The notes under the pieces are model-generated. The model was not told the origin of the DNA and searched no databases. It saw nothing but the letters and a program-made list of their open reading frames with translations. Positions 5,031-40,797 of a stretch of DNA of 44,565 nt are shown piece by piece (position 1 is the first letter of the stretch; every line of letters begins with the position of its first letter). The DNA is from Anaerolineae bacterium. Its GTDB lineage: Bacteria > Chloroflexota > Anaerolineae > JAADDB01. Location of the stretch: NCBI GenBank assembly GCA_015486895.1, contig WFQT01000412.1, forward strand, positions 1 through 44,565, written 5' to 3'. The position numbers and the translations under genes are program-made.

Positions 5031-5036
5031 GAAGAA

Positions 5037-10108: not shown

Positions 10109-10109
10109 G

Positions 10110-12019: not shown

Positions 12020-12029
12020 TTTCGATGTA

Positions 12030-12320: not shown

Positions 12321-12344
12321 AATCGCAAGGGGGATTGTTCGTGT

Positions 12345-13337: not shown

Positions 13338-13347
13338 GATTAGGCCT

Positions 13348-18044: not shown

Positions 18045-19220
18045 TTAATGATCCGAAGTTCCAGATAGCTCTGACATAATCTTCCGTAGATTAAAGGCTA
18101 CTCTGGGGGCATAGAATTGCTTCGCTGCCTTCAAAGCATTACGAACCAAGCGGGCCCGTAGACTTGCGTCACTTCGCAAAATATAGAGACCCTCTTTCAG
18201 GGCGGCAACTGAAGGTCTATCTACAATCAGAGCACACTCATGGCGTTTAAGAAACTCTGCAAGGAAGCAGTCAGATGGAAGATGTGCTAAAATAGGCCTT
18301 CCGCTTATCAAATACTCAATCACTTTGGTTGGGAAAATTGTTTGTATCTCCTCTGGGGCAAGGGAACTAGTGAAACCATGTGGCAATAGCAAAATGTCCG
18401 CACGGCGCAAACGCTGCACCAATTGGTCGCGCGAAACAGTCTCTACAGTCACTTTCGGGCCAACAAACCCTAATCGCTCCAACACAATACGAGAAGTTCC
18501 ACTCAACAGTGTAAGATGAACGTCCTGTACTTCCTGAACCATCTCGGACATACGTCTAGCCGCGTCCGAACAGGAAGCATTAATATTCCCTGCGAAGCAT
18601 AACCGGGTCGGCCGATGCAGCGCTGAGGACGATTCATACTCGGGCACAGGTTCGTTAAAAGTGTGAACCAGAGGAGAACACCTAAGCCTTGGGTACTGAC
18701 GCTGATACAACTTTTGCATTCCCTCACTCATGACGAATACATGTCTGGAGTAATCAAAGACACGGGGCTGTAACCACTGCGCTAGCTTGCTGTGCCGATG
18801 ATTCTCGAGCAAAGTATTATGAAAGTAGGCAAACAAAGGCTTACGAGTAACCCTGGCTATCATGTAGGCAGCTAACAAGTATATCTCATCAGGGTAAATA
18901 GCCAAAATCGCTTCACAGCGTTGAGATAGAAGTACCATAAGAGAGAACAGCACCAGCCAGGGAAACTGAACTTTTCGCAACCAGCGCTCACCGCGCAACC
19001 TGGACGGCCAGATCGTTGCATAGTAAATGCGGGGCCACTCACGGGACCAGGTGACTCTAGGCCTGCCGGGCTCAAAGGCCCCCACTATCACCATCTCATC
19101 CCGCGTGAATTGCTTAGCCAGATTGCCGATAATGACGGCCGAACCAGTCACCGCTGGTGGAACACTGCGACTCAGTACCAGCGTCTTGGGAAATGGCAAG
19201 GTATCGGTACTTGTGCTCAA
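18045..19220 (-). CDS. GT-B (GT4-like) glycosyltransferase
   Basis: C-terminal ..[10 protein letters not shown]....[19 protein letters not shown].. The start is set at TTG 19218-19220 (GGGAGG just upstream), which overlaps the upstream TGA. The ORF track start at 19301 would overlap the epimerase gene by 85 nt. Confidence 0.55.
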
Positions 19221-20287
19221 TTGCCTCCCCCCTTCAACCGCTGTACCCACCCTACATAAATCTCCTCGAAAATCATGGGCAAAGTCTTTGTGATGTCCCA
19301 TCCGGGATAGTGTGCTCTCATCTTGGACAGATCCGAGATATAGCAGATGTGATCACCTTCACGATTCTTGTCAATATACTCCCAACGCATCTTCCGTCCG
19401 CTCAATTGCTCGACGTAGTCAAAGGCCTCTAAAATCGAGCACGAATTGCCACGGCCACCTCCTATGTTATACACTTCGCCAGAACGAGGGCTGTTATAGA
19501 AGAATTCGATGAATCTGGCTACGTCATAAGCATGGATGTTGTCACGAACCTGTTTCCCTTTGTAGCCATAAACATGATAAATACCACCGCTCACATTGAC
19601 CTTGACCAAATAGCTGAGGAAACCATGCAGTTCCACTCCAGAATGATTTGGGCCCGTCAGGCAACCTCCACGCAAGCAGCAAGTCTTCATCCCAAAATAA
19701 CGGCCATATTCTTGCACCATGACATCGGCTGCCACTTTAGATGCGCCAAAGATAGAGTGTTTGGATTGATCTATACGCATGTCTTCCCCGATGCCATTAT
19801 AGTCTTCCGGTCGCGCATAGTCCCACCGAGTGGGAAGTTCTTTCAAAGGTAGCTCGTTGGGAGCATCACCATACACTTTATTGGTAGACATGTACACAAA
19901 CACCGCTTCTGGTGCATATCGTCGAACAGCCTCAAGTAAGTTGAGGGTACCAACTGCATTGACGTCAAAGTCGTCGAACGGGCGCCGAGCTGCCAGGTCA
20001 TGGCTGGGCTGAGCAGCGGCGTGAACGACGAGATCAGGACGCAGTTGTTCGATGCATGCCAATATTCCTGTCCGATCGCGAATGTCCAGTTCGTGGTGCT
20101 GAAAATTGCGGCAGGTGGCCTCCAGACGACGCTGGTTCCAGCGTGTATCGCCCGCCGGGCCGAAGAAATCGGCTCGCATGTTGTTGTCAATTCCATGTAC
20201 TTCCCAGCCCAAGTGATCAAAGTGCACCACAACCTCAGAACCAATCAGGCCGCTAGAGCCAGTGACAAGCAAGGTTTTCCTATTCAT
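19217..20287 (-). CDS. NAD-dependent epimerase/dehydratase, CDP-paratose-2-epimerase-like
   Basis: [29 protein letters not shown] (YxxxK region), [21 protein letters not shown] at 20285-20287 has GGAGGA 9 nt upstream. The 481-aa track ORF is an artefactual extension. Confidence 0.8.
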
Positions 20288-20765
20288 GCCGGTAATCCTC
20301 CATGTAATGTATATTGCAAAGCACAAAGCAACCTCTGGCCGCAAGCAAATTCTCAACACAGAGACGCATACGGCCCCCTTCATAACAGACAAGCCGAACA
20401 GCTTCAAGCAAGTTGAGCGTACCAACAGCGTTGACGTCGAAGTCGTCGAACGCCCGACGGGCCGCCAAATCATGGCTGGGCTGGGCAGCGGTGTGAACGA
20501 CGAGATCAGGATGCAGTTGTTCGATACATGCCAGTATCCCTTGCCGATCCCGGGTATCCAGCTCATGGTGGCGAAAACTGCGACAGGTTGCCTCCAGACG
20601 GCGCTGGTTCCAGCGCTTGTCACCGTCCGGACCGAAGAAGTCGGCCCGCATGTTGTTGTCAATCCCGTGCACTTCCCAGCCCAGGTGATCGAAGTACGTC
20701 ACCACTTCAGAACCGATCAGGCCGCTGGAGCCAGTTACCAGGATTGTGTTTTTGTCCATGTTCAT
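20280..20765 (-). pseudogene. Truncated 5' copy (about 121 codons) of the epimerase gene
   Basis: [44 protein letters not shown]...NLLEAVR has about 15 substitutions against the intact copy. It then continues with unrelated sequence to a stop. Its ATG forms an ATGA overlap with the upstream gene. Confidence 0.8.
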
Positions 20766-22480
20766 TTTTCCCCTCGCAACTGGACTGCATATAAGTGCCA
20801 ATGTGGGAATGGACTTCCTAGATCTGACAAGCCCACTTCCCGGCATTCCCTAGCTACCTCAACTGCTGATTCTAGATGCAAGTCCTCTCCTTCTTTCAGC
20901 AGGACATAGCCAGCTCCTGACTGTTCTATGAATCTGACAAACTCCTCACAAGTTCCGTTAGCGGGACTACTTCCCCAAAATCCTGTAGGAAGACGGTTCG
21001 CATAACGTATCAGATGTGGTGAGCTAGCCCAAACGACGGCTGAAGGCTCAGTCGAGCCGGCGACAAACTTGACTACTGCTTTCCTTTCTATCTGTGTAAA
21101 CCCTGTGTTGGACCACTCAGATACCTTGGCCAGCGCGAACACTGAGGTACCAATTAAAGAGATTACTGTAAGCACCAGACCCAATCGAACAAACGCATTA
21201 CCAAGATCAGCCCTGCGCCCCAACCGGTGCCGGCCTGCGGCGATGTAGCTACGCCATCGTCGGATCAGTTCAGCAAGTAGGACTGCCTGAAGTCCAATCA
21301 AGCCCCAAACGAAGTGCAAGAAATAAGCCATTCTGTAGAACGTAAGCATATACGCCCCCAGAGAAAGCGATAATAAGAACGGTATAACCAAAGCCAATCT
21401 AGTATTGCGGTTCATGTGTATCGACCAGAATTGTTCCCCGCGCAGAAATCTGTCCACCAGAATCGTAACACTTGTCAATAAAAGCCCAGGAACCGCCATG
21501 CCCCCAAAGCCCCTGGACGTTTTGAGCCCTTGCACTGCTGCAAATACTATCCTGTGTAAAAACGCTACTGGTGCCCGTCGCGCGGCCTGAAGTAGACTGT
21601 ACCGGTTCTCCTCAGGAGAACCAAAGACTTGCCGCGCAAACACTCGACCTTCAAAGAAGGGAGAACCTTGGATACGTTCTGGGTAAACAAAGCCGTAACC
21701 TTGCTCAAAAGCCTGATATGTCCGTCGTGTGTTGAGCCAGTTCGGCTTTCCCCCCTCGAGCCAAATCCAAGCAGAAACCAACAGCATAGCAACCATAAGG
21801 GTACCGAGATAGCTAATTGAAAGCTTCCAGCGAACCTGACTGGGTGACAGGACGAACAACCCGATGAAAACCAGCAGCGCAGCAACCAAGCCGTCTGCCC
21901 GCGAAAGCCAGAGCATGATGATTACCATACCAAGCACTACTGCCCATCGCTGCGAGGTTCTTAAAATGGTGCGCAACATTAACATACCAACGCACGCAAA
22001 GAAAGTCATGGCTAACCAGTGCGATGGATTGGCGTTCAAATTGATGATCAAGGCAGGAGACACAAGGAACACAAGGGGCATCAGGTGTGCAGCGTCGTGC
22101 CAACCAGCTTCTCTCAGATACGATGTAGTGAATGCCGCAGTCAGAACCCAACACACACCTATTAGCAACCTCGCACCCCACAAGCCCGGAATACATGTTG
22201 GCAACGTGCACCAAGCGCTGACCAGCAGTTCACTCGCAGCCAAGCTTACGCTGGTCAGGGGAAACCCTGAGATGTTCAAAACAGTACTGCCAGACAATAG
22301 CCTTCGTCCGCTTTCCAAATACGTGGTCTCATCCCCGGTTTGGAGTCCGCGTACTACGAACAAGACTATCAGTCCCAACACAGTGCAGCCTAGTTTCATT
22401 AACCATCTTCTGTTTCTTGTCGCCGATTGGAAAAGGCCTTTCGGCAATTCAATATGAGACTTAGTGAAGCGGTGACTCAT
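20762..22480 (-). CDS. Polytopic GT-C-like (ArnT/PMT-like) membrane glycosyltransferase, putative
   Basis: Many TM segments. The first loop motif [14 protein letters not shown] resembles the ArnT DETRYAEISREML element. A soluble C-terminal domain is present. The start is set at ATG 22478-22480 to avoid overlap with the upstream gene. Confidence 0.4.
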
Positions 22481-23913: not shown

Positions 23914-25355
23914 CAAGGGCGCCCTTCAATCACTCGTGGGAGTAGCATTCTCACCAATTTCGCAATCCGCTCCCCTGCCCGTCCATCTAAAGGCCCGCAC
24001 TCTGTTTCTCGAATACGTCGGCGACCATTTTCATCCATGGCAGGGTCCTCCAAGTACTGGTTGATCAACCTAATGCATTCCTCCGGACTGTGCGCTAGGC
24101 GTACGCCGCCACTTTCTAGAATGGAACGATAGTCTGTCCTCCGGTAAAAGCGGCGAACCGACAGGCCAGCCGGGACCCTTGCAGGCACATCATAATAAAT
24201 GTTGACGATGGGCTTGTCGAAAATGGCCGAGTCCACGGTCATCGTACCGCTTACATTGACCTGTACATCCTGATAGGCTAGAGTCGAGAGATGCATAGGT
24301 TCGTCTTCAAGGATAAGCTTTACGACAACACTCTCGTGTTCGGGACTGTTGTATGCAGCCTGACCAGGAGGTGGATAGACTGCCACCCCAGGATAGATCT
24401 GATGGATCAGCGGATGGCTGGAACCAAAACCGCGCGGATGACCACGCACCAAAAGTTGAGCTCCTCGCGCGAGTTTCCCGTCTCGTACAGCATCGGCCAG
24501 GGACTGAACAATATCAATCTCGTGCCCAATCAACGTCGGGGTAGCGCACGTGTAGACTACGAGCGGCCGCCCTGGATCCAATCCTATGCGTTGGAAGAAC
24601 TCTTTGCGCGGCAATCGATACGCCGGGTTCAGATGATGGTCAAATTGAGGTGACCCAGTAACATGTACTCTCTCAGGAGGAATCTCTGGGTACATGTGCA
24701 ACAAGAATCTTCGGGTTACCTCAGCCCAAACGAAATATGCATCGGCGTCAGGAAGGTGCTGGATCTTGGCGGCCAAGTTGTCTCTAGAACGGATCATTAC
24801 AGCCGTAGGAATGCCAAGGCTATTTGCAGCTTCAATTAGTACCATCTCACGCAAGCCTTCCGGCGAAAAACCAACCACAACCTTTGCTCCCCACTTACGA
24901 AGGAGCTCGCGGTACTGGCCCGCCACCGGATGACGCCGCAATGCTCGAGCGACTTTCTGCCTCAATGGTCGGGCCAAACCTAACCAACCTGCAAACCAAT
25001 GTGCAGCCAGCATCGCTCTAGCCTTTGTCAGACTGGCCACTCGTCGGAATCCGGGTCGAGGATGGCCCCTGTAGCTGCTGGCACGCAGCTTGACCCAAAA
25101 AGTGGTCGGATCGTAATATGACTTGCGGGTATAGTAAGCCTCCATGACCGTTCTGTGGAGTTGTGGATCGTCATGAGGGTCGAAGTCCAGTAATCGCCCT
25201 ATTTGCACACCCTCAGGCTGAGCTTGAAGAGAACCCTCGTACTGGTTCGGATCCACCAGCACAAGAACTTCTTCACCAGCCAGCCGTCGCCCCAATTCGC
25301 CATTGCGCACATTGCGCAAAGAAAGAAAACTATCGCAGCCAATGACGATGCTCAT
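23913..25355 (-). CDS. Second large GT-B-like protein with HP motif, putative surface-carbohydrate transferase
   Basis: About 480 aa. LLVRGHPRGFGSSHP plus the two-lobe layout (..VHVTGSPQFD.., ..VNVSGTMTVDSAIFDKPIVNI..). Confidence 0.3.
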   Translation of the reverse strand: MSIVIGCDSFLSLRNVRNGELGRRLAGEEVLVLVDPNQYEGSLQAQPEGVQIGRLLDFDPHDDPQLHRTVMEAYYTRKSYYDPTTFWVKLRASSYRGHPRPGFRRVASLTKARAMLAAHWFAGWLGLARPLRQKVARALRRHPVAGQYRELLRKWGAKVVVGFSPEGLREMVLIEAANSLGIPTAVMIRSRDNLAAKIQHLPDADAYFVWAEVTRRFLLHMYPEIPPERVHVTGSPQFDHHLNPAYRLPRKEFFQRIGLDPGRPLVVYTCATPTLIGHEIDIVQSLADAVRDGKLARGAQLLVRGHPRGFGSSHPLIHQIYPGVAVYPPPGQAAYNSPEHESVVVKLILEDEPMHLSTLAYQDVQVNVSGTMTVDSAIFDKPIVNIYYDVPARVPAGLSVRRFYRRTDYRSILESGGVRLAHSPEECIRLINQYLEDPAMDENGRRRIRETECGPLDGRAGERIAKLVRMLLPRVIEGRP

Positions 25356-26431
25356 AAAGTCGATCCGAGTCCACTCGTCAGCTCTGCTTCCACTATCTCA
25401 CAAATAGCGTGCCAAGCTAAAAGATGAAGTTCCTGAATGCGTGGCGTAGTTTCGGCGGGGGCGTGAAAACAAACAGACACGTGTTCCTTCATCTCTCCTC
25501 CATCCGCGCCTGTAAAGCCAATGGTCGTCGCTCCAAGCTCTCGACCAGCCTGCAAGCCACGTAGCACATTTGGCGAGCGCCCACTAGTACTGATACCCAC
25601 CACCACATCCCCTGGCCGGGCCAGGGCGCGCACCTGACGGGCAAAAACCTCAGCAAAACCCCAATCGTTACCGACAGCAGTCAGAACGGACGTGTCGGTG
25701 GTTAGAGCAAGGATCGGCCATGGTTCACTCTCCTGCAAAAAGCGGCCAACCAGTTCGCCAGCCACATGCTGAGCGTCGGCCGCACTGCCACCGTTACCAA
25801 ATATCAGAATCTTATGCCCGGTGCGGATGGCTCGGACAAAGGTCTGCGCTACCTGCACAAGTACCGGCAACGACTCATCCAACAGGCGCCTGTGTGAAGC
25901 CAAGCTATCCTCTACGATACGGCGCATATCCTCTTCCAATGCCCCAGCCCGTTCCCCATCTGTCTGTAATCTGCGCAGCAATGCTACTGCTTCTGCCACG
26001 GCTCCAGCGCCGCCGGGGTGAGAAAGAACACGGTGAGCGGCTGCTTTCGCTGCCGATGTCGCATTGGCTGGAGCCAGCCCCAGACCGACTTGTGACAATG
26101 CCGGTGCGTCGCGATCGCTATCGCCGATATAGCAAAATTTGTCAAGGGAAATGCCAATTTGATCGGACAGCGCTGTCAGAGCTAACAGCTTGTCTTTGGC
26201 GTCCCGCACGACGTGCTCAACACCGAAGCGCTTGGCGATCCGGTCAACCATTGTGTTGCTCTCAGCAGTGACGAGCACCACCGTCAGGCCAGATCGACGG
26301 GCCTGTGTAACAGCGTCCAGGTCATGAAAGCTAATCCGCTTTTCTTCTCTTCCAGAACTCTTCAAAAGGGCTATGCCATCTGTCAAGACACCGTCAATAT
26401 CCAGAGCCAACACCCGGATGCCTTTCACCAT
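25352..26431 (-). CDS. Fusion protein: KdsC/YrbI-type HAD sugar-phosphate phosphatase (N) + GmhA-type SIS isomerase (C)
   Basis: N-terminal half: LALDIDGVLTDG...KDK...YIGDSDRDAPAL..APANA. C-terminal half: KILIFGNGGSAADAQHVAGELVGRF...ISTSGRSPNV...TPRIQELHLLAWHAICE. Confidence 0.8.
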   Translation of the reverse strand: MVKGIRVLALDIDGVLTDGIALLKSSGREEKRISFHDLDAVTQARRSGLTVVLVTAESNTMVDRIAKRFGVEHVVRDAKDKLLALTALSDQIGISLDKFCYIGDSDRDAPALSQVGLGLAPANATSAAKAAAHRVLSHPGGAGAVAEAVALLRRLQTDGERAGALEEDMRRIVEDSLASHRRLLDESLPVLVQVAQTFVRAIRTGHKILIFGNGGSAADAQHVAGELVGRFLQESEPWPILALTTDTSVLTAVGNDWGFAEVFARQVRALARPGDVVVGISTSGRSPNVLRGLQAGRELGATTIGFTGADGGEMKEHVSVCFHAPAETTPRIQELHLLAWHAICEIVEAELTSGLGSTL

Positions 26432-27270
26432 GCCGTGCGCCCCCCATCTACTACCAGATTGGCACCGGTCATGTAAGATGAGGCGTCCGAGACCAAGAAG
26501 ACTACAGCCGCTTTATACTCATCAACACGCGCCATCCGTCCCAAAGGAATGAGATTAGTCAAACGCCGCACAAAAGCTTCGTCCTGCCCGGCGTACACGC
26601 CGCCGGGCGATAGTGCATTGACCCGCACCCCCTTATCCGCCCAATAGGTAGCCAGGTAGCGTGTCAGGCCAATCAAGCCGTGCTTGACCACGGAATAGCT
26701 GACTGGCTTGACAGGCTGTTGATCATCAGGCAACCCCGGCTGACGGTAGATGCGCTGGTCAGGAGCGATCACGCCCAGATCAGAGGCAATGTTCAAGATA
26801 ACGCCTTTGCCCCGCCGGGCCATCTCTGTACCAATTACTTGACTGCACAGAAAAGCCCCCGTCAGGCCAACAGCAATATCTTGATTCCATACGTCCAGGG
26901 GAAAATGCTCCAGCCGGGTCCAGGGAACATCACTATGTGCCTCCATCTTGGGATTACGTGCAGCGTTGTTGATCAAAATATCGACTCTCCCAAAAGAACT
27001 AAGAATTTGGTCAAGCATGTCACGAACCGCTGCTGGTTGTGTGATATCCGTGTGGATGCCCGTTGCTCGAACGCCAAAGATCTTTCCGATTTCCGCCGCT
27101 AGCGACCGCGCCTTTTCGCCGTTGATATCAACCAGTACGGGAATTCCACCCATCTCGGCGATGGCCTCAGCGTGACGCACCCCTAACAGGCCAGCCCCGC
27201 CCGTGATCACCGCCACACGACCAGTAAGGTCGAATTGACTACGTACACTTACTGCCCGCTCGCCTCTCAT
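26425..27270 (-). CDS. SDR-family oxidoreductase
   Basis: VITGGAGLLG, NNAA, YSVVKHG (YxxxK). Confidence 0.85.
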   Translation of the reverse strand: MRGERAVSVRSQFDLTGRVAVITGGAGLLGVRHAEAIAEMGGIPVLVDINGEKARSLAAEIGKIFGVRATGIHTDITQPAAVRDMLDQILSSFGRVDILINNAARNPKMEAHSDVPWTRLEHFPLDVWNQDIAVGLTGAFLCSQVIGTEMARRGKGVILNIASDLGVIAPDQRIYRQPGLPDDQQPVKPVSYSVVKHGLIGLTRYLATYWADKGVRVNALSPGGVYAGQDEAFVRRLTNLIPLGRMARVDEYKAAVVFLVSDASSYMTGANLVVDGGRTAW

Positions 27271-28139
27271 AGACCAACTCGACGAAGTTTTTTCATTATC
27301 GGGATTTCACTGGGCCAGACACGTTTTACCCCGTCGCCCATCGCCTTCTCGACAGCCCGGATATCCTTGACTAACCGTCGGAAGCCTTGCGGTTCTACAG
27401 ACGCCGCCTGGTCACTACCCCACATAGCCCTGTCCAGGGTGATGTGCCGCTCAACCATACACGCTCCTAAAGCAACGGCTGCCACCGATGTAGCGAGCCC
27501 AACCTCGTGCCCAGAGTAGCCCACAGGCACACCGTAGCGTTTTCGCAGACTCTGTATCGTGCGAAGATTGAGTTCCTCAGCTTTGGATGGATATGTGCTG
27601 GTGCAGTGCAGTATAACCAGATCGTCTTTGCCCAACACTTCAACAGCATGATCGATCTGCTCGAGTGTGCTCATGCCGGTGGATAAAATAATGGGACGGC
27701 CGTACTTACGATGATGTCGCAGTAAATTATCATCTGTCAGCGACGCCGAGGCTATTTTGTAGCATGGTGGGTCGAACTGTTCGATGAAGTCCACAGATCC
27801 CTCATCCCAGCAGGAAGCATACCACATGATACCCTTTTCGCGACAGTAGCGGTCAATTTCCTCGTACTCTTGCTGTCCAAATTCCAACCCTCGTTTCAGG
27901 TCCCCGTTGGTAGTACCAAAGGGGCTCTCGCGAGGGCGAGCCAGATCCCCAGGAGTATACACTACTTCAACCGTACGCTTTTGGAACTTGACCGCGTTAC
28001 AGCCAGCTTCCGCCGCAGCGTCGATCAATTTCTTGGCAATCTGCAAATCGCCATTGTGGTTGATGCCAATCTCGGCAACGATGAAAGCTGGTTGTCCATC
28101 ACCGACGAGATAATCACCGATCCGCACTACGTTGCTCAT
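27267..28139 (-). CDS. NeuB-family ulosonic acid synthase lacking the C-terminal SAF domain
   Basis: FIVAEIGINHNGDL..A..LIDAAAEAGCNAVKFQKR...KIASASL...ILSTGMS...LHCTSTYP...GYSGHE...ERHITLD. It ends at 290 aa, just after the TIM-barrel part. Confidence 0.8.
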   Translation of the reverse strand: MSNVVRIGDYLVGDGQPAFIVAEIGINHNGDLQIAKKLIDAAAEAGCNAVKFQKRTVEVVYTPGDLARPRESPFGTTNGDLKRGLEFGQQEYEEIDRYCREKGIMWYASCWDEGSVDFIEQFDPPCYKIASASLTDDNLLRHHRKYGRPIILSTGMSTLEQIDHAVEVLGKDDLVILHCTSTYPSKAEELNLRTIQSLRKRYGVPVGYSGHEVGLATSVAAVALGACMVERHITLDRAMWGSDQAASVEPQGFRRLVKDIRAVEKAMGDGVKRVWPSEIPIMKKLRRVGL

Positions 28140-28157
28140 GATCTTTCCTCCTAGATC

Positions 28158-28931
28158 TCAGACTGGATAACGGCCGGGGGTGCGGCTTTCCTCTAACGGC
28201 AAGCCGCTTTCCAGACGTCCTAAGGCCTCTTCAATAGCTGGAATATCCTCAGGGTAATCCAATTCGAAGAGCGGATCATCCACGACAAAAGGAATGGCAC
28301 GATCACCCCACATGGAATTCTTTTCCAGGACGGCACGCGGCCGAACGACGTCTACGTAACCATTCTGCCAATAGACCAACGGTAATTGCTGACGCGGCAA
28401 TGACTGACAATCAGGTATCCCTTCGATACGTAGCAATGGTTCCAAGTAGCCTTCTGACGTAATCCGCCACATCTTGTAAGGCGTTTGCAATGCCAGGCTG
28501 ACCGACCGCACGGCATCAGCTTCGGGATGCATAGCCAATAGCTCAATCGCCCGCTCAATCAACTCCACCCGGCGTACTGGCTGGGTGGGGCGCAAGTGAA
28601 CGACTAAATCGGGCACGTAGCTTTCATGGTCCCGCAGCCAGGTCAGAGCATGGCTGAAAACGTCGATGTCGGGCGATAGGTCCTGGGCGTATTCAGCCGG
28701 GCGCATGAAAGGCACCTCCGCTCCCCACTGCCGGGCCACCTCAGCAATCTCCTCGTCGTCAGTGGAGACAATCACGCGGTCAATGCGCTCCGAAGCCTGA
28801 GCCTGTAAGATGGAATAAGCAATCAGCGGCTTGCCAGCAATGGGTAAGATGTTCTTGCGCAGAATGCCCTTGGACCCGCCGCGAGCGGGGATAAGAGCAA
28901 GGACAGAAAAAAGCTTGAACTTGTTATTCAC
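28158..28931 (-). CDS. Acylneuraminate (CMP-ulosonic acid) cytidylyltransferase family
   Basis: ALIPARGGSKGILRKN..IAGKPLIAYSI...VIVSTDDEEIA...HLRPTQP. Confidence 0.85.
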   Translation of the reverse strand: MNNKFKLFSVLALIPARGGSKGILRKNILPIAGKPLIAYSILQAQASERIDRVIVSTDDEEIAEVARQWGAEVPFMRPAEYAQDLSPDIDVFSHALTWLRDHESYVPDLVVHLRPTQPVRRVELIERAIELLAMHPEADAVRSVSLALQTPYKMWRITSEGYLEPLLRIEGIPDCQSLPRQQLPLVYWQNGYVDVVRPRAVLEKNSMWGDRAIPFVVDDPLFELDYPEDIPAIEEALGRLESGLPLEESRTPGRYPV

Positions 28932-28933
28932 AG

Positions 28934-29786
28934 TTACGTACCTCGAAAACTCGTCACGAACTCCTCAATGCTATAGATCTGCGGAAACTGTTCGAGTGGC
29001 AACTTGCTCCGACTGCAAATGCAATGCTTGTAACTTATCTGATGCACCATAAAGCCGTACTCTTTCAACAGTAACTCCGCCAATTCCGAGAGAGAACTGT
29101 CAACCTGCCCGAGTTTCCTTCCGTGAACTTCCAGAAGTAAGACCAGTCGTGGATTCTTGGGTACCAGCCTTTCCATGCCTTTCAGAACCTCGACCTCGTA
29201 TCCTTCGCAGTCCACCTTAATTGCATCAACCCGATCTAGCTCATCATCCAGACGGATCACAGGCACTTCTGCTGTCCCCCCCCCCGATCTTCCTGCCAGG
29301 TTGGGCAATGCTTCCGGTCAGCATTCCGCGCGGTATTATTGCCTTTCCAGGAACCGAACCGACGACTGCACATTTAGCCACGACATTTGTGAGATGATTA
29401 GCCTGTACACTCTTCTCCAAAAGGTCAAAATAATGCGGAACGGCCTCATAAGCAAATACTCTTCCTTCATTCCCTACCAGCGACGCCATTTCTATCGTGT
29501 AGTCACCCACATGGGCGCCTACATCACAGCAAAACCACCCCGGTTCAAGAAGAGGAAGAAAAACTCGGCGCACTGGCATTTCCGTTCCCTCACGTAACCG
29601 CTTCCGCATTCCAGGGCCATCCGCAAGGCGCATCCAGAGCTTGTAGGGACCAGTTATCTCATTGTAGGAAACCGTATACTCTCTGGGGCGATTATAAAAA
29701 GCGCGATAATACCACTCTTTAGCCTTCCGCATCCTATAACCACCGAAAAGCCTCTGGCGAAAACCTCTCACATAATGCCTCAACAT
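28934..29786 (-). pseudogene. FkbM-family methyltransferase split by a frameshift in a G10 (C10 on plus strand) tract
   Basis: ORF 29244-29786 has CDVGAHVGDYTIEMA...VFAYEAVP. ORF 28934-29308 has VIRLDDEL..VDAIKVDCEGYEVEVLKG. Both read through 29276-29285 in different frames. G9 or G12 would join them into about 283 aa. Confidence 0.8.
29276..29285. repeat. Homopolymeric C10/G10 tract
   Basis: Read directly: gctgt cccccccccc gatc. Confidence 0.95.
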
Positions 29787-29837
29787 GTCTCCACTCTCCT
29801 ATGTTCACTCCTACGTTCAGACGAGAGCCCACCTTAG

Positions 29838-30893
29838 TTACTCGCCTGCTATCTCCACAGCATGCCCCGACCGGAGCGAAGCCTCGGCCGCCAGCGAGAT
29901 TTTCAGGCTGCGAACTCCTTCGCGCAGATCCACCAGTGGTTGTTCCTCGCCGCGCAAGCAAGCCAGAAAATGCTCAAGTTCGTCCATGAACATCCGATTA
30001 CGGTCGAACCCTTCGAATCGCTGGATTTGCACGATGCGTGTAGCCCGTTCGTAGAATGCGGTCTGGTTGGCGTAATAGTCGTAGCGCACTTTGCCCGCAT
30101 CGCCAATGACCTCGCATACCCGCTGGGGCGGCCGTTGCAGGTAATCCAGGTGAACATGCACTGGCAAGGGGCGACCATCGTATTCACACTGCAAGAGTAC
30201 GCTCACCGAGTCCTCCACATCAACTTCCAATTCGCTCAGGTGTCCACCCACCGCAAACACTCGCCTGGGCATCCCAAACAGCCACAGGACGTAATCAATC
30301 TCGTGCGTCTGGATGTGCAAGCACCCACCTCCCAAATCCCGCCGGGCAGGGTGGGTTTTTCGGTAATCTTCGTAGGGATGCCAATCGGGCAAATACTCAC
30401 CATTCACGATGTGGGCGGCAACCAGTCGCCCCAGACGTCCCTCGTCAATCAGCGATTTGACCCATCGTAAACCCGGATGAAAGCGGAACTGGTAGGCCAC
30501 AAACGCCACCAGTCCCTTGTGTTCCACGAGTTCGACCAGTTCATCAACGCCCTCCAACGAATGAGAAAGGGGCTTCTCGATGAAGAGATGACAACCCGCT
30601 CGTGCCGCAGCCAGGGCGACCGGCAGGTGCAGGGCGTTGGGATTGGTCACAAAGACAGCATCGGGCTGTTCTGACAGCGCGTCCTCCAGATTGCTAAAGG
30701 AACGGATGTTGTATGTCGTTTCCAGGTCGGTCCCCGGTCTCACTGTCATATCCGGGTTGAGCACCGGGCTCTGGCCCCGGCTGCGATAGGCCAGGATTTC
30801 CACATTGTCACCCAACAGCGCCCGCAGGTTGCGTACGTGGCGCTGGCCGATGGAACCAAGGCCAGCAAAGAGCACCTTGAGATGATACTTCAT
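29838..30893 (-). CDS. Gfo/Idh/MocA-family oxidoreductase
   Basis: N-terminal Rossmann FAGLGSIGQRH, and the EKP motif (CHLFIEKPL). Confidence 0.8.
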   Translation of the reverse strand: MKYHLKVLFAGLGSIGQRHVRNLRALLGDNVEILAYRSRGQSPVLNPDMTVRPGTDLETTYNIRSFSNLEDALSEQPDAVFVTNPNALHLPVALAAARAGCHLFIEKPLSHSLEGVDELVELVEHKGLVAFVAYQFRFHPGLRWVKSLIDEGRLGRLVAAHIVNGEYLPDWHPYEDYRKTHPARRDLGGGCLHIQTHEIDYVLWLFGMPRRVFAVGGHLSELEVDVEDSVSVLLQCEYDGRPLPVHVHLDYLQRPPQRVCEVIGDAGKVRYDYYANQTAFYERATRIVQIQRFEGFDRNRMFMDELEHFLACLRGEEQPLVDLREGVRSLKISLAAEASLRSGHAVEIAGE

Positions 30894-31639
30894 AAATTTT
30901 CTCCGCTTTTGGGAAGCCCAGGGGCTCCTGCGCCGTTCTTTCGCCTATCCAAAAGCCAAGCTGCCAGCTCCAGATCAAAGTAAGTATCTATGTCTATCGA
31001 GTCAGCAGGATCCATCATGTACGGCACCACTTGCGAACCGTAGAAAGTCTCTTGCTCCACAATCACGTCTGCCCGAGTGACCAACACGGCCGGGCCATTG
31101 CGTGCATACAGAACAGGAACTTCCTGCCGCCTATAGCGGTCGAAAGGCACAGACACCTGCCAGAAATCTTCAAGACATCCATCCACAAGACGCATGACGG
31201 AGTACGGACTGTAACGATGCGGCACTTGCACAACACTGACTACGGTCTCAGCACCACTCCGCAGCAACAGGTCTACAGCCTCATCAATATGCTGCGCCCG
31301 GCGTAACGGCGAGGTGGGTTGTAGTAAGACCAGTACGTCCGCCTGCCACCCCTCGTGCTCAATTAGCCAGCGGATGGCATGTTGGGCTACAGCCAGGCTG
31401 GGTGTGTCGTCACGCGCCAGTTCACTCGGTCGCACGAATGGTACTTCCACGCCACAGTCACGCCCCACTTCAGCGATGACCTCGTCGTCCGTGGAGAGGA
31501 TAACGCGAGTCAAATACTGGCTTTGCAAAGCCGCCTCGCATGTATAAGCCAGGAGCGGCCGTCCAGCCAACCTAGCGATATTTTTGTGCGGGATACTTTT
31601 CGATCCCCCTCGCGCAGGGATCAAGCCGAGAATTTTCAT
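30890..31639 (-). CDS. neuA: Acylneuraminate cytidylyltransferase (second copy)
   Basis: MKILGLIPARGGSKSIPHKN...GRPLLAYT...ILSTDDEVIA...LLQPTSPLR. The start is set at ATG 31637-31639 (TGATG overlap with neuC). An alternative GTG lies at 31669. Confidence 0.8.
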   Translation of the reverse strand: MKILGLIPARGGSKSIPHKNIARLAGRPLLAYTCEAALQSQYLTRVILSTDDEVIAEVGRDCGVEVPFVRPSELARDDTPSLAVAQHAIRWLIEHEGWQADVLVLLQPTSPLRRAQHIDEAVDLLLRSGAETVVSVVQVPHRYSPYSVMRLVDGCLEDFWQVSVPFDRYRRQEVPVLYARNGPAVLVTRADVIVEQETFYGSQVVPYMMDPADSIDIDTYFDLELAAWLLDRRKNGAGAPGLPKSGENL

Positions 31640-32808
31640 CAATACGTCATCCGTTTCTGCACTTCCCACGAACAGGTAGATAAAATGTCGGCGATGCGCT
31701 CGCCAGCATGACCATCTCCATAGATATGCTCAGAGGGATAACGTCCGTGATCTAATTGCCGTTGGATGGCCTCGATAATCTGTTCGCGATCGTAATCCAC
31801 GTCGATGACGTTGCTGCCCCGCTCCCGTCCCATCTGGCGTGTACCGATGTTTACAGCAGGTAGGCCCAGGAATGCTCCCTCACGAATGGCGGAACTGGAA
31901 TTGCCTACCATGCAAGCACTGCGCATCATCAAGCGAATGAAAGTTTCAACAGGAAAGTTTTTGTAGAATCGAATATAGTCGTGACGATAGTGCTCACGGA
32001 ACTTACGCATCCCTCTGGCGATATCTTCGGCACCAGCATCTACATTAGGCCAAAGCATGACGGTCGGCACCTGCAATTCATGGAGAGCCATCAAGGTTTC
32101 GGTGATCTGATGCTCCCCTTGACCATATTCGGTGGTAACGGGGTATTGAGCCACAAGCAAAAATGGTTCATCCAAATTGATATGACCTCCGACACCCTCA
32201 TACTCCAACCAGGCTCGTTCCGGCAGCCGGCCATCATTGCTAACGACCTCCGCTATCAAATCAATACGAGGGCAACCTACCACGTGTACCGTAGCCGGAT
32301 CTTCGCCCATGCGGATAATTCGCTCGGCGGCAGACCGGTTGGCAGGAAAATGAATATGAGCCAGTTTGGTTACCGCATGACGCACACTCTCGTCAATAGT
32401 CCCGGTAACCTCCCCACCCATTGTGTGCGCCAAAGGGATATTCATGTAAACAGCCGCAATGGCAGTGGCCATTGTCTCAAAGCGGTCTCCCACAGTTAGC
32501 ACTACATCCGGCTTGAGTCTATCGAAAATTGTGGGTAACTCCAAAAGCCCCAGGCCTGTTGATTTGGCCATCGTCGCAGGTGTCTCGCCCTCGATGATCA
32601 TATGCACTCTGGCATCTGGCTTGAAGCCATCAGCCTCGATGACTTCTACAACCGAGCCAAACCGGTCCAGCAATGCAGAAGCCCCAACAACCAACTGTAG
32701 CTCCAGATCAGGGTGAGCCTGAATGGCGCGCATAGCGCTCTTGATGCTTCCATAATTTGCCCGACTGCCGACTACAACACATACTTTGCGCACAAACCCC
32801 TCCGTCAC
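31639..32808 (-). CDS. neuC: UDP-N-acetylglucosamine 2-epimerase (hydrolysing), NeuC type
   Basis: VVVGSRANYG...GDRFE..A.A.AA....PLAHTMGGEVTGTIDESVRHA.TKLAH.HF.. Confidence 0.85.
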   Translation of the reverse strand: MTEGFVRKVCVVVGSRANYGSIKSAMRAIQAHPDLELQLVVGASALLDRFGSVVEVIEADGFKPDARVHMIIEGETPATMAKSTGLGLLELPTIFDRLKPDVVLTVGDRFETMATAIAAVYMNIPLAHTMGGEVTGTIDESVRHAVTKLAHIHFPANRSAAERIIRMGEDPATVHVVGCPRIDLIAEVVSNDGRLPERAWLEYEGVGGHINLDEPFLLVAQYPVTTEYGQGEHQITETLMALHELQVPTVMLWPNVDAGAEDIARGMRKFREHYRHDYIRFYKNFPVETFIRLMMRSACMVGNSSSAIREGAFLGLPAVNIGTRQMGRERGSNVIDVDYDREQIIEAIQRQLDHGRYPSEHIYGDGHAGERIADILSTCSWEVQKRMTY

Positions 32809-32838
32809 ATTTGCACAGATTGGGTAGACGTACCCGCT

Positions 32839-33858
32839 TCACATATCAAAGAGATCTTCTTCCCGGATAAGACTATCCTTTGGTATCCTTCGTTTGGTGC
32901 GCTTGCCTAACACATCTTTGATTCGGCTGGCGGGTATCCCCGTTCCTGGTTTTTTGATTCCTATCATGTCGGCGGTAACCACAGCGCCTTGAGGAATTTC
33001 CACCAACGAGACGACACTCTTCTCAAAAATCTTCTTCATCTCCTTCAACCTAAGGGCATTGGCATCCTTATCCACACGTGAGGACAACATCGTCTCGATA
33101 GCACGGATCCCTTGAACAAGTTCTTCGAATTCTTTCGGTTCCAATGAGTGGCGTGCATCACTACCGTACATCAAACGACTGAACGTCAGGTGCTTCTCGA
33201 TAACAGACGCACCCAAAACGACCGCCGCCAGCGAGGCATAAGGCGTCAGCGTATGGTCAGAAAGCCCCACAGGCAGTTTGTACCGTCCTCGCATCTCCAG
33301 CATCACGTTTAACCCTGCTTCCTCATACGGGCAAGGGTACTCTGATGTACATTGCAGCACCGTCAGTCGGTCGTGGTAACGCAGTATGGTGTTGACAGCC
33401 TCGTCCAGTTCGGCCCATGAGCTCATGCCTGATGAGAGCAACACTGGTTTACCTGTCTGGGCAATCACCTCCAAAAGGGGCAGGTTACTCACTTCACCTG
33501 ATGGTATCTTGTAGCGGCCTACACCCACATCCTCTAACAGTTCGACAGCTTCAATCGAGAAGGGCGACGAGAGGAATTCAACACCATGGGCCTCACAATG
33601 CGCTTTCAGAGTCTTCCATTGATCTCGATTAAAAGCCGTACGCTCGAAATAATCATAACGCGGCTCACCTTTGAAATAAGGTGGCATGGGAGCATCACGC
33701 AACGTTTCCGCGGCAGCGATATGGGTTTGGAATTTGACAGCGTCTACGCCACAGCTTGCAGCCACTTCGATTAGCTTTTTGGCATTACCAAAGCTGCCGT
33801 CATGGACGGAGCCAACCTCGGCAACGACAGAAACTTGATTCAAGTTCTCGTCATTCAT
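32839..33858 (-). CDS. neuB: N-acetylneuraminate-type synthase with SAF domain
   Basis: VVAEVGSVHDGS...GVDAVKFQTH...KIPSGEV...LLSSGMS...LQCTSEYP...GLSDHT...EKHLT, plus a C-terminal SAF-like IPQGAVVTADMIGIKKPGTGIP. Confidence 0.85.
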   Translation of the reverse strand: MNDENLNQVSVVAEVGSVHDGSFGNAKKLIEVAASCGVDAVKFQTHIAAAETLRDAPMPPYFKGEPRYDYFERTAFNRDQWKTLKAHCEAHGVEFLSSPFSIEAVELLEDVGVGRYKIPSGEVSNLPLLEVIAQTGKPVLLSSGMSSWAELDEAVNTILRYHDRLTVLQCTSEYPCPYEEAGLNVMLEMRGRYKLPVGLSDHTLTPYASLAAVVLGASVIEKHLTFSRLMYGSDARHSLEPKEFEELVQGIRAIETMLSSRVDKDANALRLKEMKKIFEKSVVSLVEIPQGAVVTADMIGIKKPGTGIPASRIKDVLGKRTKRRIPKDSLIREEDLFDM

Positions 33859-37428: not shown

Positions 37429-39093
37429 CTAGAGGAGAGCTGTTTCCAATACTATTGATTCCTGCTCCATAATTTTGATGAGATGATAGAGGTGGATTTC
37501 CTGCATAGGATATTCATACCTTGATTCAATAACACCCAACTTTGCACGAAGACCTAAAATGCGCTGACCTAAATCGTCATGTTCTAATTGATCGAAGAAA
37601 GGCGATCGAAACCAACGCTGGTAATTCGAAGGGTCTTTTATATTCCATTTTATACGAGTAGGGTCAAATTCAGAAAATCGATGCCGTAATGGAGCCTTGA
37701 TATCGAAATAATCGCGCCTCTTTATGTGGCTATTTACATGAAGCGCAAGAGGTGAGATATAGGGAAGCATCCCCTTTATCGAGAAGTACCTGGCAGAAAT
37801 GACCCACGCCATTGTTTCCCCGGATGTACAATAATTCACGTAGCGTTGGAGAACAAACTTCTTATATGGAAAAGCTTGCATACAATCAAATTCCGGCCCA
37901 AAATACCGCGTAAATCTATCTAAATATTTAAATCTCTCTCTTTCAAATGAATGAATCATCACAAATCTAGTCAAATATTTACCGATAGTTCGTCGAACTC
38001 TGGTTCTAAAACTAACAGGCGATGATTGAACAAGATGAGCAATGTCATCTATTACACGAGTGCTATGAGAGCCTTTCCTCAGAAAAAATATTTGATGAAG
38101 ACCCCAATCCCACATATTATCAGCACTTTGTCCACTTAGTAGCACTTGCGCATCCGAGTGACTCGCTAACGAATAACAAAATATAGCAAAGAAGGCACTA
38201 AACGGATTATAGTCAACAAAGTGCCGATAATAACGATTGAAACCATCCACATCTGAAAAATCTAACGTAACATTGGGATATTTCTTTTTTAATTGCTGCG
38301 CCGCTTTTGCGCCCGCCACGCGTTCTCGTTTTCGCTGAAGGTCAGCATAGGGCTCTTTGTAGTCCACGGTAAGCAGTTGGCTTACTTTTTCATTATACAA
38401 AGATGCCAAGCCATGACTGTCAGGCCCACCAGAATACGCCACATCAAAGGAATTATAATGGTCTTTATAACAAGCAACTGCCTTTAAGTAGTCATCTATA
38501 TCATACTGTGGGGGGTTAGCGGAATCTATCGTATGAAATCCAGGAAACGCCTGCATTATCAGAGTGATCCCCTCTGGACGAAATGCATAAAGTGCATATG
38601 GTTTAAGATGCCAGAGGTTCTGAAAAAGCGTCTTGGGATATTGACAGGAGCCGCGCCGAAGAAAATATTCTAAGTTATCTCGAGAGAGCTCCACCTGATC
38701 TAGCTTTTTCAGGATCGCTTGCCAGGATGTATCAATTACAATTCCTCTTGAATTCCGCCCACAATAGACAGGAACGTCAATCTCACCAGAAGTATAGATA
38801 TATGACACTACCCCACCTTGTTCAACTATCACTATATATGAGCCGATTAATTCGGTCAGCCGGTGAACTTCCTCTACCAAATCCTGTGAAGTGCAGAACT
38901 TCCTAATTACATCAATCATTTGGGCATCTATAGGTACAAAAACACCAAGGCTTCTATAATCCGCCATGAAATCGATGCTTCCAAGGATAGTAACTGCAAT
39001 AGAGTCGCATACAGTCTTCAGTAATGGAGTAGAACAAGATGTTATAACACCCTCATTGTTTATTTGGACATGAAACTTCGATTCATTCGCCAT
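37429..39093 (-). CDS. Asparagine-synthetase-like PP-loop ATP-pyrophosphatase lacking the N-terminal Cys nucleophile
   Basis: PP-loop FDVAYSGGPDSHGL. A degenerate N-terminal Ntn-like region (..GSYIVIVEQGGVVSYIYTSGEIDVPVYCG..). The protein starts MANESK, not MCG. Own SD (GAGGAGTAGGAAGCA) before the ATG. The DNA is markedly AT-rich. Confidence 0.5.
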   Translation of the reverse strand: MANESKFHVQINNEGVITSCSTPLLKTVCDSIAVTILGSIDFMADYRSLGVFVPIDAQMIDVIRKFCTSQDLVEEVHRLTELIGSYIVIVEQGGVVSYIYTSGEIDVPVYCGRNSRGIVIDTSWQAILKKLDQVELSRDNLEYFLRRGSCQYPKTLFQNLWHLKPYALYAFRPEGITLIMQAFPGFHTIDSANPPQYDIDDYLKAVACYKDHYNSFDVAYSGGPDSHGLASLYNEKVSQLLTVDYKEPYADLQRKRERVAGAKAAQQLKKKYPNVTLDFSDVDGFNRYYRHFVDYNPFSAFFAIFCYSLASHSDAQVLLSGQSADNMWDWGLHQIFFLRKGSHSTRVIDDIAHLVQSSPVSFRTRVRRTIGKYLTRFVMIHSFERERFKYLDRFTRYFGPEFDCMQAFPYKKFVLQRYVNYCTSGETMAWVISARYFSIKGMLPYISPLALHVNSHIKRRDYFDIKAPLRHRFSEFDPTRIKWNIKDPSNYQRWFRSPFFDQLEHDDLGQRILGLRAKLGVIESRYEYPMQEIHLYHLIKIMEQESIVLETALL

Positions 39094-39176: not shown

Positions 39177-39533
39177 TCAATAGAATAATTCTCGCGCGCC
39201 ACACGCCAGCCAGGGATCGCCCTTACGGATGACGGCCACACTACCACAAGTGCTACCGCCGTCTATGTCTATAACGATGTATTCCAAGTTTGGGTACCCT
39301 TGCAACAACACCGAGCGGATAGTTTCCTCGATGAACTGCGCCTGATTGTACGACGGCGTGACGATGCTCACCCGCAGCCGGGGGCGGCCACCTGCCCTGA
39401 GCAGAGCCGAAGGGTCGGGCATCGTAACCGGCAACTGCGGGCTCTCCCCCGTCCACGGCCAGCCGGTTTTGCCCGGCGGCGGGGGTGGGAGTTCATTCAG
39501 AGTTGGACAGCGCATGGCCCCTTTCCTTTCCAA
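39177..39533 (-). pseudogene. 5' fragment of a GT2 glycosyltransferase gene
   Basis: [36 protein letters not shown](ID)[17 protein letters not shown], then an abrupt end. The probable original start is M at 39422. A 6-nt tandem duplication (gtctat x2) lies inside. Confidence 0.7.
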
Positions 39534-39786
39534 GTTCCCACTCTTCCAGGATCTCTTGATACCAATGCAAATACTTGTTCACTTGCTGCTCCAGGTTGAA
39601 ACGCATACGAGCAGCCTTGGCCGCCTGAGCGCCCATTTCCCTACGCGGTTTATCGTCAGAAAGCATTTGCTCAATCCGAGAAGCCATCGCTTCCGCATTC
39701 CCCGGTGGTACCAGGAACCCAGTCACTCCATGTTCGACCTGCTCTGGGATGCCTCCAACCGCTGTTGCTACCACTGGCGTGCGCAA
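39493..39786 (-). pseudogene. 3' fragment of a GT4 glycosyltransferase gene
   Basis: ..[40 protein letters not shown].. is the EX7E C-terminal lobe only. It begins 15 nt after the hldA-like stop, with no N-terminal lobe. Confidence 0.75.
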
Positions 39787-39801: not shown

Positions 39802-40797
39802 CTACACGGACGAAGAGTCAATGAACTCACCGTTCATCAGTTCTTCGCCGGTGACTGTAGCCGTTCCCACCTTTCCCACTACAATACCGGCAGCCTGATT
39901 CGCCAAGCGCGCGGCCTGTTCCAAAGTGGCGCCCGATGCCAAAGCCATCGCTAGTGTGCTGACGACAGTATCGCCAGCTCCCGTAACATCGAAAACGTTT
40001 CGGGCTACAGCCGGGATGTCTATAGTAGTCCGACCCCCGTCCAGGAACAAGGACATGCCTTGCGCTCCACGGGTGATTAGTAGTGCGCTTCCCTCAAGAA
40101 TGACGCACAGTCGTCGGCCAACTTCCAGCAGGTCGGCCTCGCTATGGATTTCGCGGTTCAATGCTTGCTCTGCTTCATGTACGTTGGGCGTGACCACGGT
40201 AGCACCGCGGTACTTAGCATAGTCCGTGCCTTTAGGATCCACAATCATCGGCTTACCAGCGTCCTTCGCCAACTGGATGAAGCGCTCAGCAAGCCTGGAC
40301 GAAATAACCCCCTTAGCATAATCAGAGAGAACACAGGCATCGGCTTCGGCTATCCGTCTCTCGGCCCATTGAAGCAGCATGTCCTCTAGATCAGCCCGCA
40401 AAGGCACCCGCTGCTCAGAGTCCACGCGAACGACGTGTTGGTTGTGGGCAACTATACGGGTTTTAGTTGTGGTGGAACGCTGGTCATCAACAACCAAGCC
40501 GTCGAACTCCACGCCGATTTGCGTAAGTGCGTTGCGAAGTTCTTCGGCCTGATGATCCCGGCCAACCACGCCACCCAGCATCGCTCGACCACCTAGGCCG
40601 ACCACATTGGCGGCTGTGTTAGCTGCTCCACCTGGCAGATAAACCCGGCGGCGGATCTCGACCACAGGTACCGGGGCCTCGGGCGAGATGCGCCGCACTT
40701 CACCCCAGATGTACTCATCCAACATCACATCACCAACGATGAGAACACGCTTGCCGGGGAAGGCAGTTACTATATCGCGTAACGCTTTTTCTCTCAT
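39802..40797 (-). CDS. hldA: D-glycero-beta-D-manno-heptose-7-phosphate kinase (RfaE domain I, PfkB family), stand-alone
   Basis: VLIVGDVMLDEYIWGEVRRISPEAPVPVV...GGAANTAANV...DVTGAGDTV. The start is set at ATG 40795-40797 (ATGA overlap with gmhB). Confidence 0.8.
   Translation of the reverse strand: MREKALRDIVTAFPGKRVLIVGDVMLDEYIWGEVRRISPEAPVPVVEIRRRVYLPGGAANTAANVVGLGGRAMLGGVVGRDHQAEELRNALTQIGVEFDGLVVDDQRSTTTKTRIVAHNQHVVRVDSEQRVPLRADLEDMLLQWAERRIAEADACVLSDYAKGVISSRLAERFIQLAKDAGKPMIVDPKGTDYAKYRGATVVTPNVHEAEQALNREIHSEADLLEVGRRLCVILEGSALLITRGAQGMSLFLDGGRTTIDIPAVARNVFDVTGAGDTVVSTLAMALASGATLEQAARLANQAAGIVVGKVGTATVTGEELMNGEFIDSSSV

Follow-up and report, generated by a model that had tools for sequence, protein, structure and literature searches.

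A poly-G tract interrupts an FkbM-type methyltransferase gene in a ulosonic-acid module of a deep-sea hydrothermal Anaerolineae bacterium: a candidate ON/OFF switch

A 44,565-nucleotide contig of an uncultured Anaerolineae bacterium (WFQT01000412.1, assembly GCA_015486895.1; the whole stretch is hereafter called the window) carries a surface-polysaccharide locus in which the gene for an FkbM-type methyltransferase is broken at a run of ten G's. A related lineage carries a pure run of eight G's at the same codons, so the two alleles lie one nucleotide above and one below a shared in-frame length of nine. Both halves of the gene have evolved under purifying selection, and the run of ten recurs in independently assembled data. 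We put at about even the chance that the tract is a slippage-prone site that repeatedly switches the methyltransferase gene off and on, with the window holding an OFF allele.

Results

The G tract and the reading frames of the FkbM gene

The tract occupies positions 29276–29285 and reads G10 on the coding (−) strand, which is C10 on the + strand; the coding-strand letters around it are ...CCTGGCAGGAAGATC-GGGGGGGGGG-ACAGCAGAAGTGCCTGTGATCCGTCTGGATGATGAG.... The gene spans 28934–29786, or 853 nt, a length of 1 modulo 3. Its N-terminal open reading frame (ORF) starts with an ATG at 29786 and, with ten G's, meets a stop at 29244, while the C-terminal frame ends at a TAA at 28934–28936. When the tract was edited in silico, nine G's gave a single ORF of 283 aa that reads ...PGRKIGGGTAEVPVIRLDDEL..., and twelve gave 284 aa with one extra glycine (...PGRKIGGG(G)TAEVPVIRLDDEL...), whereas versions with eight, ten, or eleven G's all stopped within 6–11 codons. 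Changes in tract length thus toggle, in silico, between a full-length product (G9 or G12) and a truncated one. A preliminary description made from the letters of the window had placed the two halves of an FkbM gene in different frames, split at this run, with 9 or 12 G's giving a coherent FkbM protein and the gene being OFF here. The sequence and its ORFs bear out this arrangement: the window allele is out of frame and stops after 180 aa, and the repaired ORFs match PF05050 and TIGR01444 across the junction.

The tract is the sole homopolymer of at least 8 nt in the window. Runs of C or G with lengths from 4 to 10 number 181, 50, 13, 1, 0, 0, and 1, respectively, and shuffled sequences are expected to contain 0.10 runs of at least 10. 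GGG accounts for 23% of the glycine codons in the window, and three consecutive GGG codons have a probability of ~0.012; elsewhere in the window, Gly-Gly-Gly occurs just once, written GGAGGTGGG.

The protein repaired to nine G's matches both models of the FkbM O-methyltransferases, Pfam PF05050 over residues 88–245 (72.1 bits against a cut-off of 22.7, 8e-20) and TIGR01444 (84.2 bits against a cut-off of 37.7, 1.2e-23), with the PF05050 match spanning the junction at residues 167–169. The window gene itself is interrupted, and only the edited G9 and G12 forms are whole. We consider the product a predicted FkbM-family S-adenosylmethionine (SAM)-dependent methyltransferase, which as a member of this family would methylate a sugar or polyketide hydroxyl; its gene neighborhood would suggest the substrate. 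An AlphaFold model of the G9 form (predicted local distance difference test [pLDDT] 93.1, predicted template modeling score [pTM] 0.88) displays a class I SAM-methyltransferase (Rossmann-like) fold. In this model, the three glycines at residues 167–169 lie in an irregular segment (residues 153–170) directly before a strand (residues 171–177), and the block that bears them is the least confident of the core (mean pLDDT of 86). The best Foldseek matches of the model in the Protein Data Bank (PDB) are all generic class I methyltransferases (E ~1e-7, TM ~0.4), and a PDB sequence search found no solved structure of the FkbM type.

In the 19 intact homologues described below, both the sequence and the length of the stretch from PGR to AEVPV are variable, and this stretch is 7–8 residues shorter in the window protein. 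In-frame changes of the tract should therefore be tolerated, and what the tract encodes is a permissive surface loop. Of the columns that are at least 90% conserved among these homologues, the window protein keeps all 43 in the N-terminal half and all 25 in the C-terminal half. We also considered a functional enzyme split into two polypeptides and rejected it, since the break falls within the Rossmann core and each of the 19 intact homologues consists of a single chain.

A related lineage is out of frame in the opposite direction

A search of 5.8 billion proteins yielded 19 intact homologues of 249–311 aa that are 48–71% identical to the repaired protein. The best of them (P0001, 285 aa, 71% identity, NCBI contig CDHSCS010000382.1) has no G tract. 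The sole close relative (P0017) shares 82% amino acid identity with the repaired window protein. It is encoded on a 1018-bp contig from Logan run ERR13325278 (L001) that is 80% identical to the window at the DNA level, and it too is split, into products of 171 and 113 aa. At the homologous codons this contig reads CTC-GGGGGGGG-ATGGCGGAAGTA, a pure G8 tract (positions 629–636 of L001), and nine G's would restore ...RILGGGMAEVPVVRLDDEL.... The same G8 stands at positions 731–738 of a second contig (L086; European Nucleotide Archive [ENA] ERZ24794672, NODE_804861, labeled cov 1.9), which differs from the first by 2 single-nucleotide polymorphisms (SNPs; 99.8% identical). Hence, two lineages carry a pure G tract at the same codons, displaced by +1 in the window and by −1 in the relative from the shared in-frame G9.

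Other searches added no further close relatives. A protein search with the C-terminal half alone matched just the two known C-terminal halves, and a scan of metagenome contigs with a DNA pattern covering the tract and both flanks gave no match. When genome contigs were scanned with the family alignment, the matches listed included relatives at 25–38% identity and none that was close.

The simplest explanation of these observations is the following mechanism, whose steps are those of homopolymer contingency loci in general. With nine G's the gene would be in frame, and slipped-strand mispairing during replication would add or remove a G. Each gain or loss would truncate the enzyme after ~170–180 residues, with most of the Rossmann core lost; judged by the structural model, no more than three or four strands from the start of the core remain in the OFF product, which should be inactive. 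The G10 allele of the window would then be OFF by +1 and the G8 allele of the 80%-identical lineage OFF by −1, and the tract would act as a mutational ON/OFF switch of the contingency type for modification of a ulosonic-acid sugar. The slippage mechanism and its rate are inferred, as are its reversibility, the resulting phenotype, and a possible adaptive value, for example escape from phages or grazers.

Assembly evidence and sample origin

The species is an uncultured bacterium of deep-sea hydrothermal deposit samples, and its G10 allele can be followed through several assemblies. NCBI contig JALTDZ010000729.1 (GCA_027008045.1) is 100% identical to window positions 19244–39786 (20.5 kb), G10 included. 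The exact 180-aa frameshifted product and the 110-aa C-terminal half each occur on four contigs of 20–50 kb, and the exact 180-aa product is present in NCBI, ENA, and Logan assemblies, which were made with different pipelines (for ENA, the G10 is deduced from an exact-protein look-up). An ENA scaffold of the same species (REYS20-1_SAMN12239303) corresponds to biosample S014, run SRR10312495, and the species is also present in S016 (SAMN12239305, SRR10312493), likewise from Brothers volcano. The supplement of PMC9793634 assigns S014 to the Lower Cone deposit of Brothers volcano at 1315 m. The Brothers volcano metagenomes were obtained from Nextera libraries on the Illumina HiSeq 3000 with 2×150 bp reads (PMC7768687). 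Over 6.4 kb, the sole differences between the S014 scaffold and the window are ten clustered transitions at 5822–6130 (~300 nt), within a gene for a flavin adenine dinucleotide (FAD)-binding oxidoreductase; such clustering suggests either a recombination patch or local microdiversity among strains.

Were the tract lengths a sequencing or assembly artefact, the true tract would be G9 in both lineages and the gene intact. Homopolymers are classic sites of indel errors, the second lineage is of very low coverage, and both observed lengths are exactly one step off the in-frame length, all of which would fit such an error. However, the same G10 emerges from the different NCBI, ENA, and Logan pipelines, the traceable scaffold comes from the HiSeq 3000 and not from a long-read platform, and the G8 is shared by two assemblies that are 2 SNPs apart. 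In addition, no other gene of the window is broken at a homopolymer: 27 other long ORFs tile it intact, including genes with a C7 run (14181–14187) and a T7 run (9332–9338). The recurrence of G10 in several assemblies and the lack of any other homopolymer-broken gene make an assembler artefact unlikely. In a test of Illumina data, false-length reads made up ~0.7% at control simple sequence repeats (SSRs) versus 4.5% at truly variable SSRs (PMC5084427), so that a wrong consensus in both lineages is improbable. Overall, we judge an artefact of either kind very improbable. Generally poor assembly quality was considered separately and rejected, given the intact tiling of the window by long ORFs and the intact C7 and T7 genes.

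Selection on the gene and competing explanations

The ratio of nonsynonymous to synonymous substitution rates (dN/dS) was calculated by the Nei-Gojobori method between the window and the 1018-bp relative, with both alleles repaired to G9. It is 0.133 overall, 0.159 in the N-terminal half, and 0.102 in the C-terminal half, at a dS of ~0.9, and neither allele contains any other stop or frameshift. The low dN/dS of both halves and the lack of other lesions indicate that G9 has set the reading frame of the C-terminal half for nearly the whole period since the lineages split. A decaying pseudogene would be expected to show several lesions or a dN/dS near 1, whereas here we find a single lesion at the tract and values of 0.10–0.16. 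An old pseudogene is thus ruled out for either allele, and each of the frameshifts is recent, reversible, or spurious.

Several observations weigh against a maintained switch. The protein collections searched contained no in-frame (ON) allele of either lineage, and no variation in tract length was seen within a lineage, with four contigs at G10 and two at G8. The second lineage is represented solely by ~1-kb contigs, one of them the low-coverage contig noted above. The tract lies mid-gene (nt 502–511 of 853) and not close to the 5′ end, and it is the single long homopolymer in 44.5 kb of surface-glycan genes. Retention of the tract itself is only mildly improbable by chance: at a dS of ~0.9, we estimate a chance of ~0.1 for three four-fold sites all to remain G in the two lineages, which is modest evidence for selection on the tract. 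Finally, the same locus contains true gene remnants (Table 1), so decay does occur here.

A rival explanation is recent, effectively one-way pseudogenization, in which the G9 site is fragile, each lineage has lately lost the methyltransferase on its own, and the OFF alleles have become fixed and will decay. In its favor, the locus holds the true gene remnants just mentioned, and only OFF alleles are known, each uniform in its lineage; the species occurs in two samples (S014 and S016) with flanking microdiversity, and G10 stands on every long contig that carries the gene. On the other hand, neither lineage has acquired a second lesion at a dS of ~0.9, the low dN/dS extends over both halves, and the conserved residues are all kept. 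Two independent hits at one tract also imply a mutation rate that makes reversion equally easy while the tract remains pure. Moreover, the FkbM gene is constant and intact in the module in all 19 other homologues. We regard one-way loss as a serious contender that is nonetheless somewhat unlikely.

A different explanation leaves the DNA as it is and restores the frame during expression. Slippage of RNA polymerase or frameshifting by the ribosome at the G run would recover the frame in a fraction of the products, giving constitutive low expression whatever the tract length. Eight to ten G's form a possible slippery sequence, and apart from the tract the two out-of-frame alleles are perfectly maintained. 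In some bacteria, genes frameshifted at a long homopolymer are rescued by transcriptional slippage, but chiefly where the run is A/T, which counts against its action on a G run; in addition, recoding would have to supply opposite shifts, +1 and −1, in the two lineages. No stimulatory structure was found, though no search aimed at one was made. We judge recoding very improbable.

Returning to the reversible switch, the stochastic ON/OFF switching proposed in the preliminary description is only partly sustained: the oppositely displaced relative, the purifying selection, and the reproduced G10 speak for it, while the missing in-frame allele and the single tract length per lineage speak against it. 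Sequencing error, named there as the main alternative, now appears unlikely. The comparison of tract length among relatives suggested there was carried out and revealed a difference, G8 versus G10, at homologous codons. Further disabling mutations beside a uniform G10, which it took as the mark of a plain pseudogene, were looked for, and none was found in either allele.

The ulosonic-acid modules and the predicted consequences of the OFF state

Every gene of the window is on the − strand, and together they make up a single large surface-polysaccharide locus, the features of which are collected in Table 1. Besides those listed, the locus holds several GT1, GT2, and GT9 transferases and an AsnB-type amidotransferase. 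The cluster encodes two NeuB proteins (PF03102), two cytidylyltransferases (PF02348), and a NeuC that scores 404 bits against TIGR03568, above the cut-off. The NeuB and PseF equivalog scores fall below their cut-offs and do not assign the exact sugars, and all equivalog scores within module 2, the second of the two ulosonic-acid modules, are likewise below cut-off.

Table 1. Positions of the FkbM gene, its neighbors, and other features in the window
Feature	Position	Strand	Remarks
G10 homopolymer	29276–29285	−	Frameshift site; in-frame lengths G9, G12, or G6
FkbM N-terminal half as read with G10	29244–29786	−	180 aa, final 11 frameshifted; SAM-binding motif region CCDVGAHVGDY
FkbM C-terminal half, G9 frame	28934–29275	−	TAEVPVIRLDDEL...FRGT, then stop; conserved K-[IVM]-D-C-E-G-Y-E motif
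Shine-Dalgarno-like AGGAGAG	29794–29800	−	Ends 7 nt upstream of ATG 29786; read from sequence
Module 1, nonulosonic acid	30890–33858	−	NeuB with SAF 32839–33858; NeuC 31639–32808; cytidylyltransferase 30890–31669
GFO/IDH/MocA oxidoreductase	29838–30893	−	First gene of module 2
CMP-sugar (PseF/KdsB-like) cytidylyltransferase	28158–28931	−	GTG start 2 nt past FkbM stop; candidate for a polar effect with FkbM OFF
NeuB-family ulosonic-acid synthase without SAF domain	27267–28139	−	
Short-chain dehydrogenase (SDR), module 2	26425–27270	−	4–7 nt overlap with neighbors
KdsC-like HAD phosphatase/GmhA-like SIS isomerase fusion, module 2	25352–26431	−	
Wzy-type polymerase/ligase protein	16606–18039	−	
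Priming Bac_transf enzyme	6769–8328	−	
Heptose-activation genes	39802–42457	−	
5′-truncated Polysacc_synt_2 fragment	4340–5083	−	Pfam positions 113–291 of 293
Epimerase N-terminal fragment	20280–20846	−	Duplicate of part of adjacent epimerase gene 19217–20287
Decayed GT2 N-terminal fragment	39177–39533	−	Pfam positions 1–47 of 168; back to back with GT1 remnant
GT1 C-terminal fragment	39493–39786	−	Pfam positions 116–171 of 172
Sulfotransferase, probably truncated	43721–44293	−	Pfam positions 73–183 of 255

After the HAD-SIS fusion of module 2 come two proteins without a Pfam match, of 480 and 459 aa. The isomerase/synthase/phosphatase/cytidine monophosphate (CMP)-transferase logic of the module resembles the Kdo and Kdn routes, and its product could be an unusual (methylated) ulosonic acid. 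The same gene order surrounds the best intact homologue (L084, positions 8958–14685), with an intact FkbM gene that has no tract, indicating that FkbM is an integral and normally intact member of module 2. Past FkbM, the spacing between genes ranges from −7 to +18 nt. No promoter-like or terminator-like sites above chance were found in 27000–31000, and the window has no tRNA or Rfam matches. In tblastn comparisons with plasmids, AbiEii and AsnB reached less than 41% identity.

The expected consequence of the OFF state is loss of methylation of the module 2 sugar. The FkbM gene stands between the oxidoreductase and the cytidylyltransferase, so that the enzyme may act before sugar activation, and its loss could block the pathway instead of just leaving the sugar unmethylated. 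The early stop also leaves ~310 nt untranslated ahead of tightly packed genes and could lower their expression; given this packing, the OFF state may extend to the rest of the module. Methylation as the switched phenotype, as first proposed, remains the expected outcome but may be too narrow, with FkbM 2 nt upstream of a packed chain of genes.

Gene remnants and other repeats in the window

Repeats and gene fragments occur at several other places in the window. The Polysacc_synt_2 fragment is flanked by arrays at 3865–4359 and 5062–5253, consisting of dense 9- and 14-nt repeats (CACGAATTG) and ~50-nt repeats (TTATCTGTGTGCG...). In the region of the epimerase fragment there is a 300-nt direct repeat (19923–20222 and 20395–20694, 84% identical). 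For the sulfotransferase, none of the frames up to the contig end (43721–44565) yielded an N-terminal 3′-phosphoadenosine-5′-phosphosulfate (PAPS)-loop region. Between glycosyltransferase genes, a 554-aa protein (37429–39093) has a weak, partial match to Asn_synthase (PP-loop) that falls short of the Pfam cut-off (E = 0.005).

Inside the coding region of the Bac_transf gene, at 7634–7672 on the − strand, stands an octanucleotide repeat with three perfect copies, (ACAAGGGG)x3, and two imperfect ones. Eight is not divisible by 3, so one copy more or fewer would shift the reading frame of the priming transferase; copy number is the same in the ENA S014 scaffold (0 gaps). Imperfect heptanucleotide repeats, CAGC[CT]A[TC] x4 on the − strand, are found at 9868–9898, in the 5′ part of a GT2 gene (9005–10108), and again at 11022–11055, at the junction of a GT2-fragment::methyltransferase gene (10110–11249). 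Both segments belong to a partial duplication (9785–10081 versus 10939–11228, 85–89% identical).

Seven-nucleotide tandem arrays, GTCAGAA x10 and AGAGGTC x6, occur at 317–389 and 2629–2672. Direct repeats of 191 nt (362–552 and 2629–2819, 89% identical) bracket an AbiEi/AbiEii toxin-antitoxin pair (910–2557), which thus looks like an inserted cassette. Adjoining this pair, at 2957–3768, there is an overlap between a retropepsin-like aspartyl protease of 128 aa and a DUF5678 protein of 142 aa, and the same protease/DUF5678 pair is found on a 1.2-kb scaffold from S016 (L091, 99.2% identical).

Discussion

The closest analogues of the arrangement described here are the poly-G methyltransferase genes of Campylobacter. 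Among the Campylobacter contingency genes, G(7–13) tracts occur in several SAM-dependent methyltransferases (PMC6321876), and Cj1325 (Cj1325/6) of C. jejuni is a methyltransferase in the island for O-linked flagellar glycosylation with legionaminic or pseudaminic acid (PMC7677240). The likeness lies in the intragenic G tract, the SAM-dependent methyltransferase, and the nonulosonic-acid glycan locus; in Campylobacter, one-base indels switch the frame and tract length varies between strains (PMC6321876; PMC7677240). The comparison with Cj1325 refers to SAM-dependent methyltransferases as such and not to membership in the FkbM family. Campylobacter is, in contrast, a gut pathogen with dozens of tracts per genome and demonstrated switching, whereas we find one candidate tract in 44.5 kb of an uncultured vent bacterium.

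Other systems share single elements with this gene. In Neisseria, lgtA/C/D and pgtA encode surface-glycan enzymes whose ORFs contain a G run and are turned ON or OFF by slipped-strand mispairing (PMC2192423; PMC2193922); these enzymes are glycosyltransferases rather than methyltransferases, and they belong to host-adapted pathogens with experimentally verified phase variation. Orsi et al. described homopolymeric tracts as a general prokaryotic device of gene inactivation, with independent and reverting frameshifts in the poly-A tract of Listeria inlA (PMC2831843), and the poly-C tract of Mycobacterium tuberculosis glpK is a non-classical case of reversible frameshifting (bioRxiv 10.1101/717272; PMC10334774). 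Both genes resemble the FkbM gene in having a single homopolymer in an otherwise conserved gene with repeated, independent frameshifts that can revert; they differ in gene and phenotype, and in that both ON and OFF alleles have been observed.

The type of switch is therefore already known, and what is unusual is its setting in an uncultured bacterium of deep-sea hydrothermal deposits. In a far-reaching version of the switch, the locus would be a conserved contingency locus of a free-living vent bacterium: selection would keep the tract, the OFF state would lower expression of the whole second ulosonic-acid module and not methylation alone, since FkbM heads a chain of closely packed genes, and cells would stochastically display two surface polysaccharides, for example as bet-hedging against phages or grazers. 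We find this full scenario unlikely; if it holds, SSR phase variation of nonulosonic-acid glycans would reach far outside the host-associated pathogens. If the G10 is instead fixed, the finding amounts to an ordinary recent frameshift.

Nearly all work on homopolymer-driven phase variation in surface-glycan enzymes concerns host-adapted pathogens, for example Campylobacter, Neisseria, and Haemophilus. The split gene carries a warning for annotation, in that such genes in metagenome-assembled genomes should be neither called pseudogenes nor silently repaired. If the tract is a maintained poly-G switch, it would mean that bet-hedging of the same sort is at work in free-living microbes, with phages or grazers presumably exerting the pressure.

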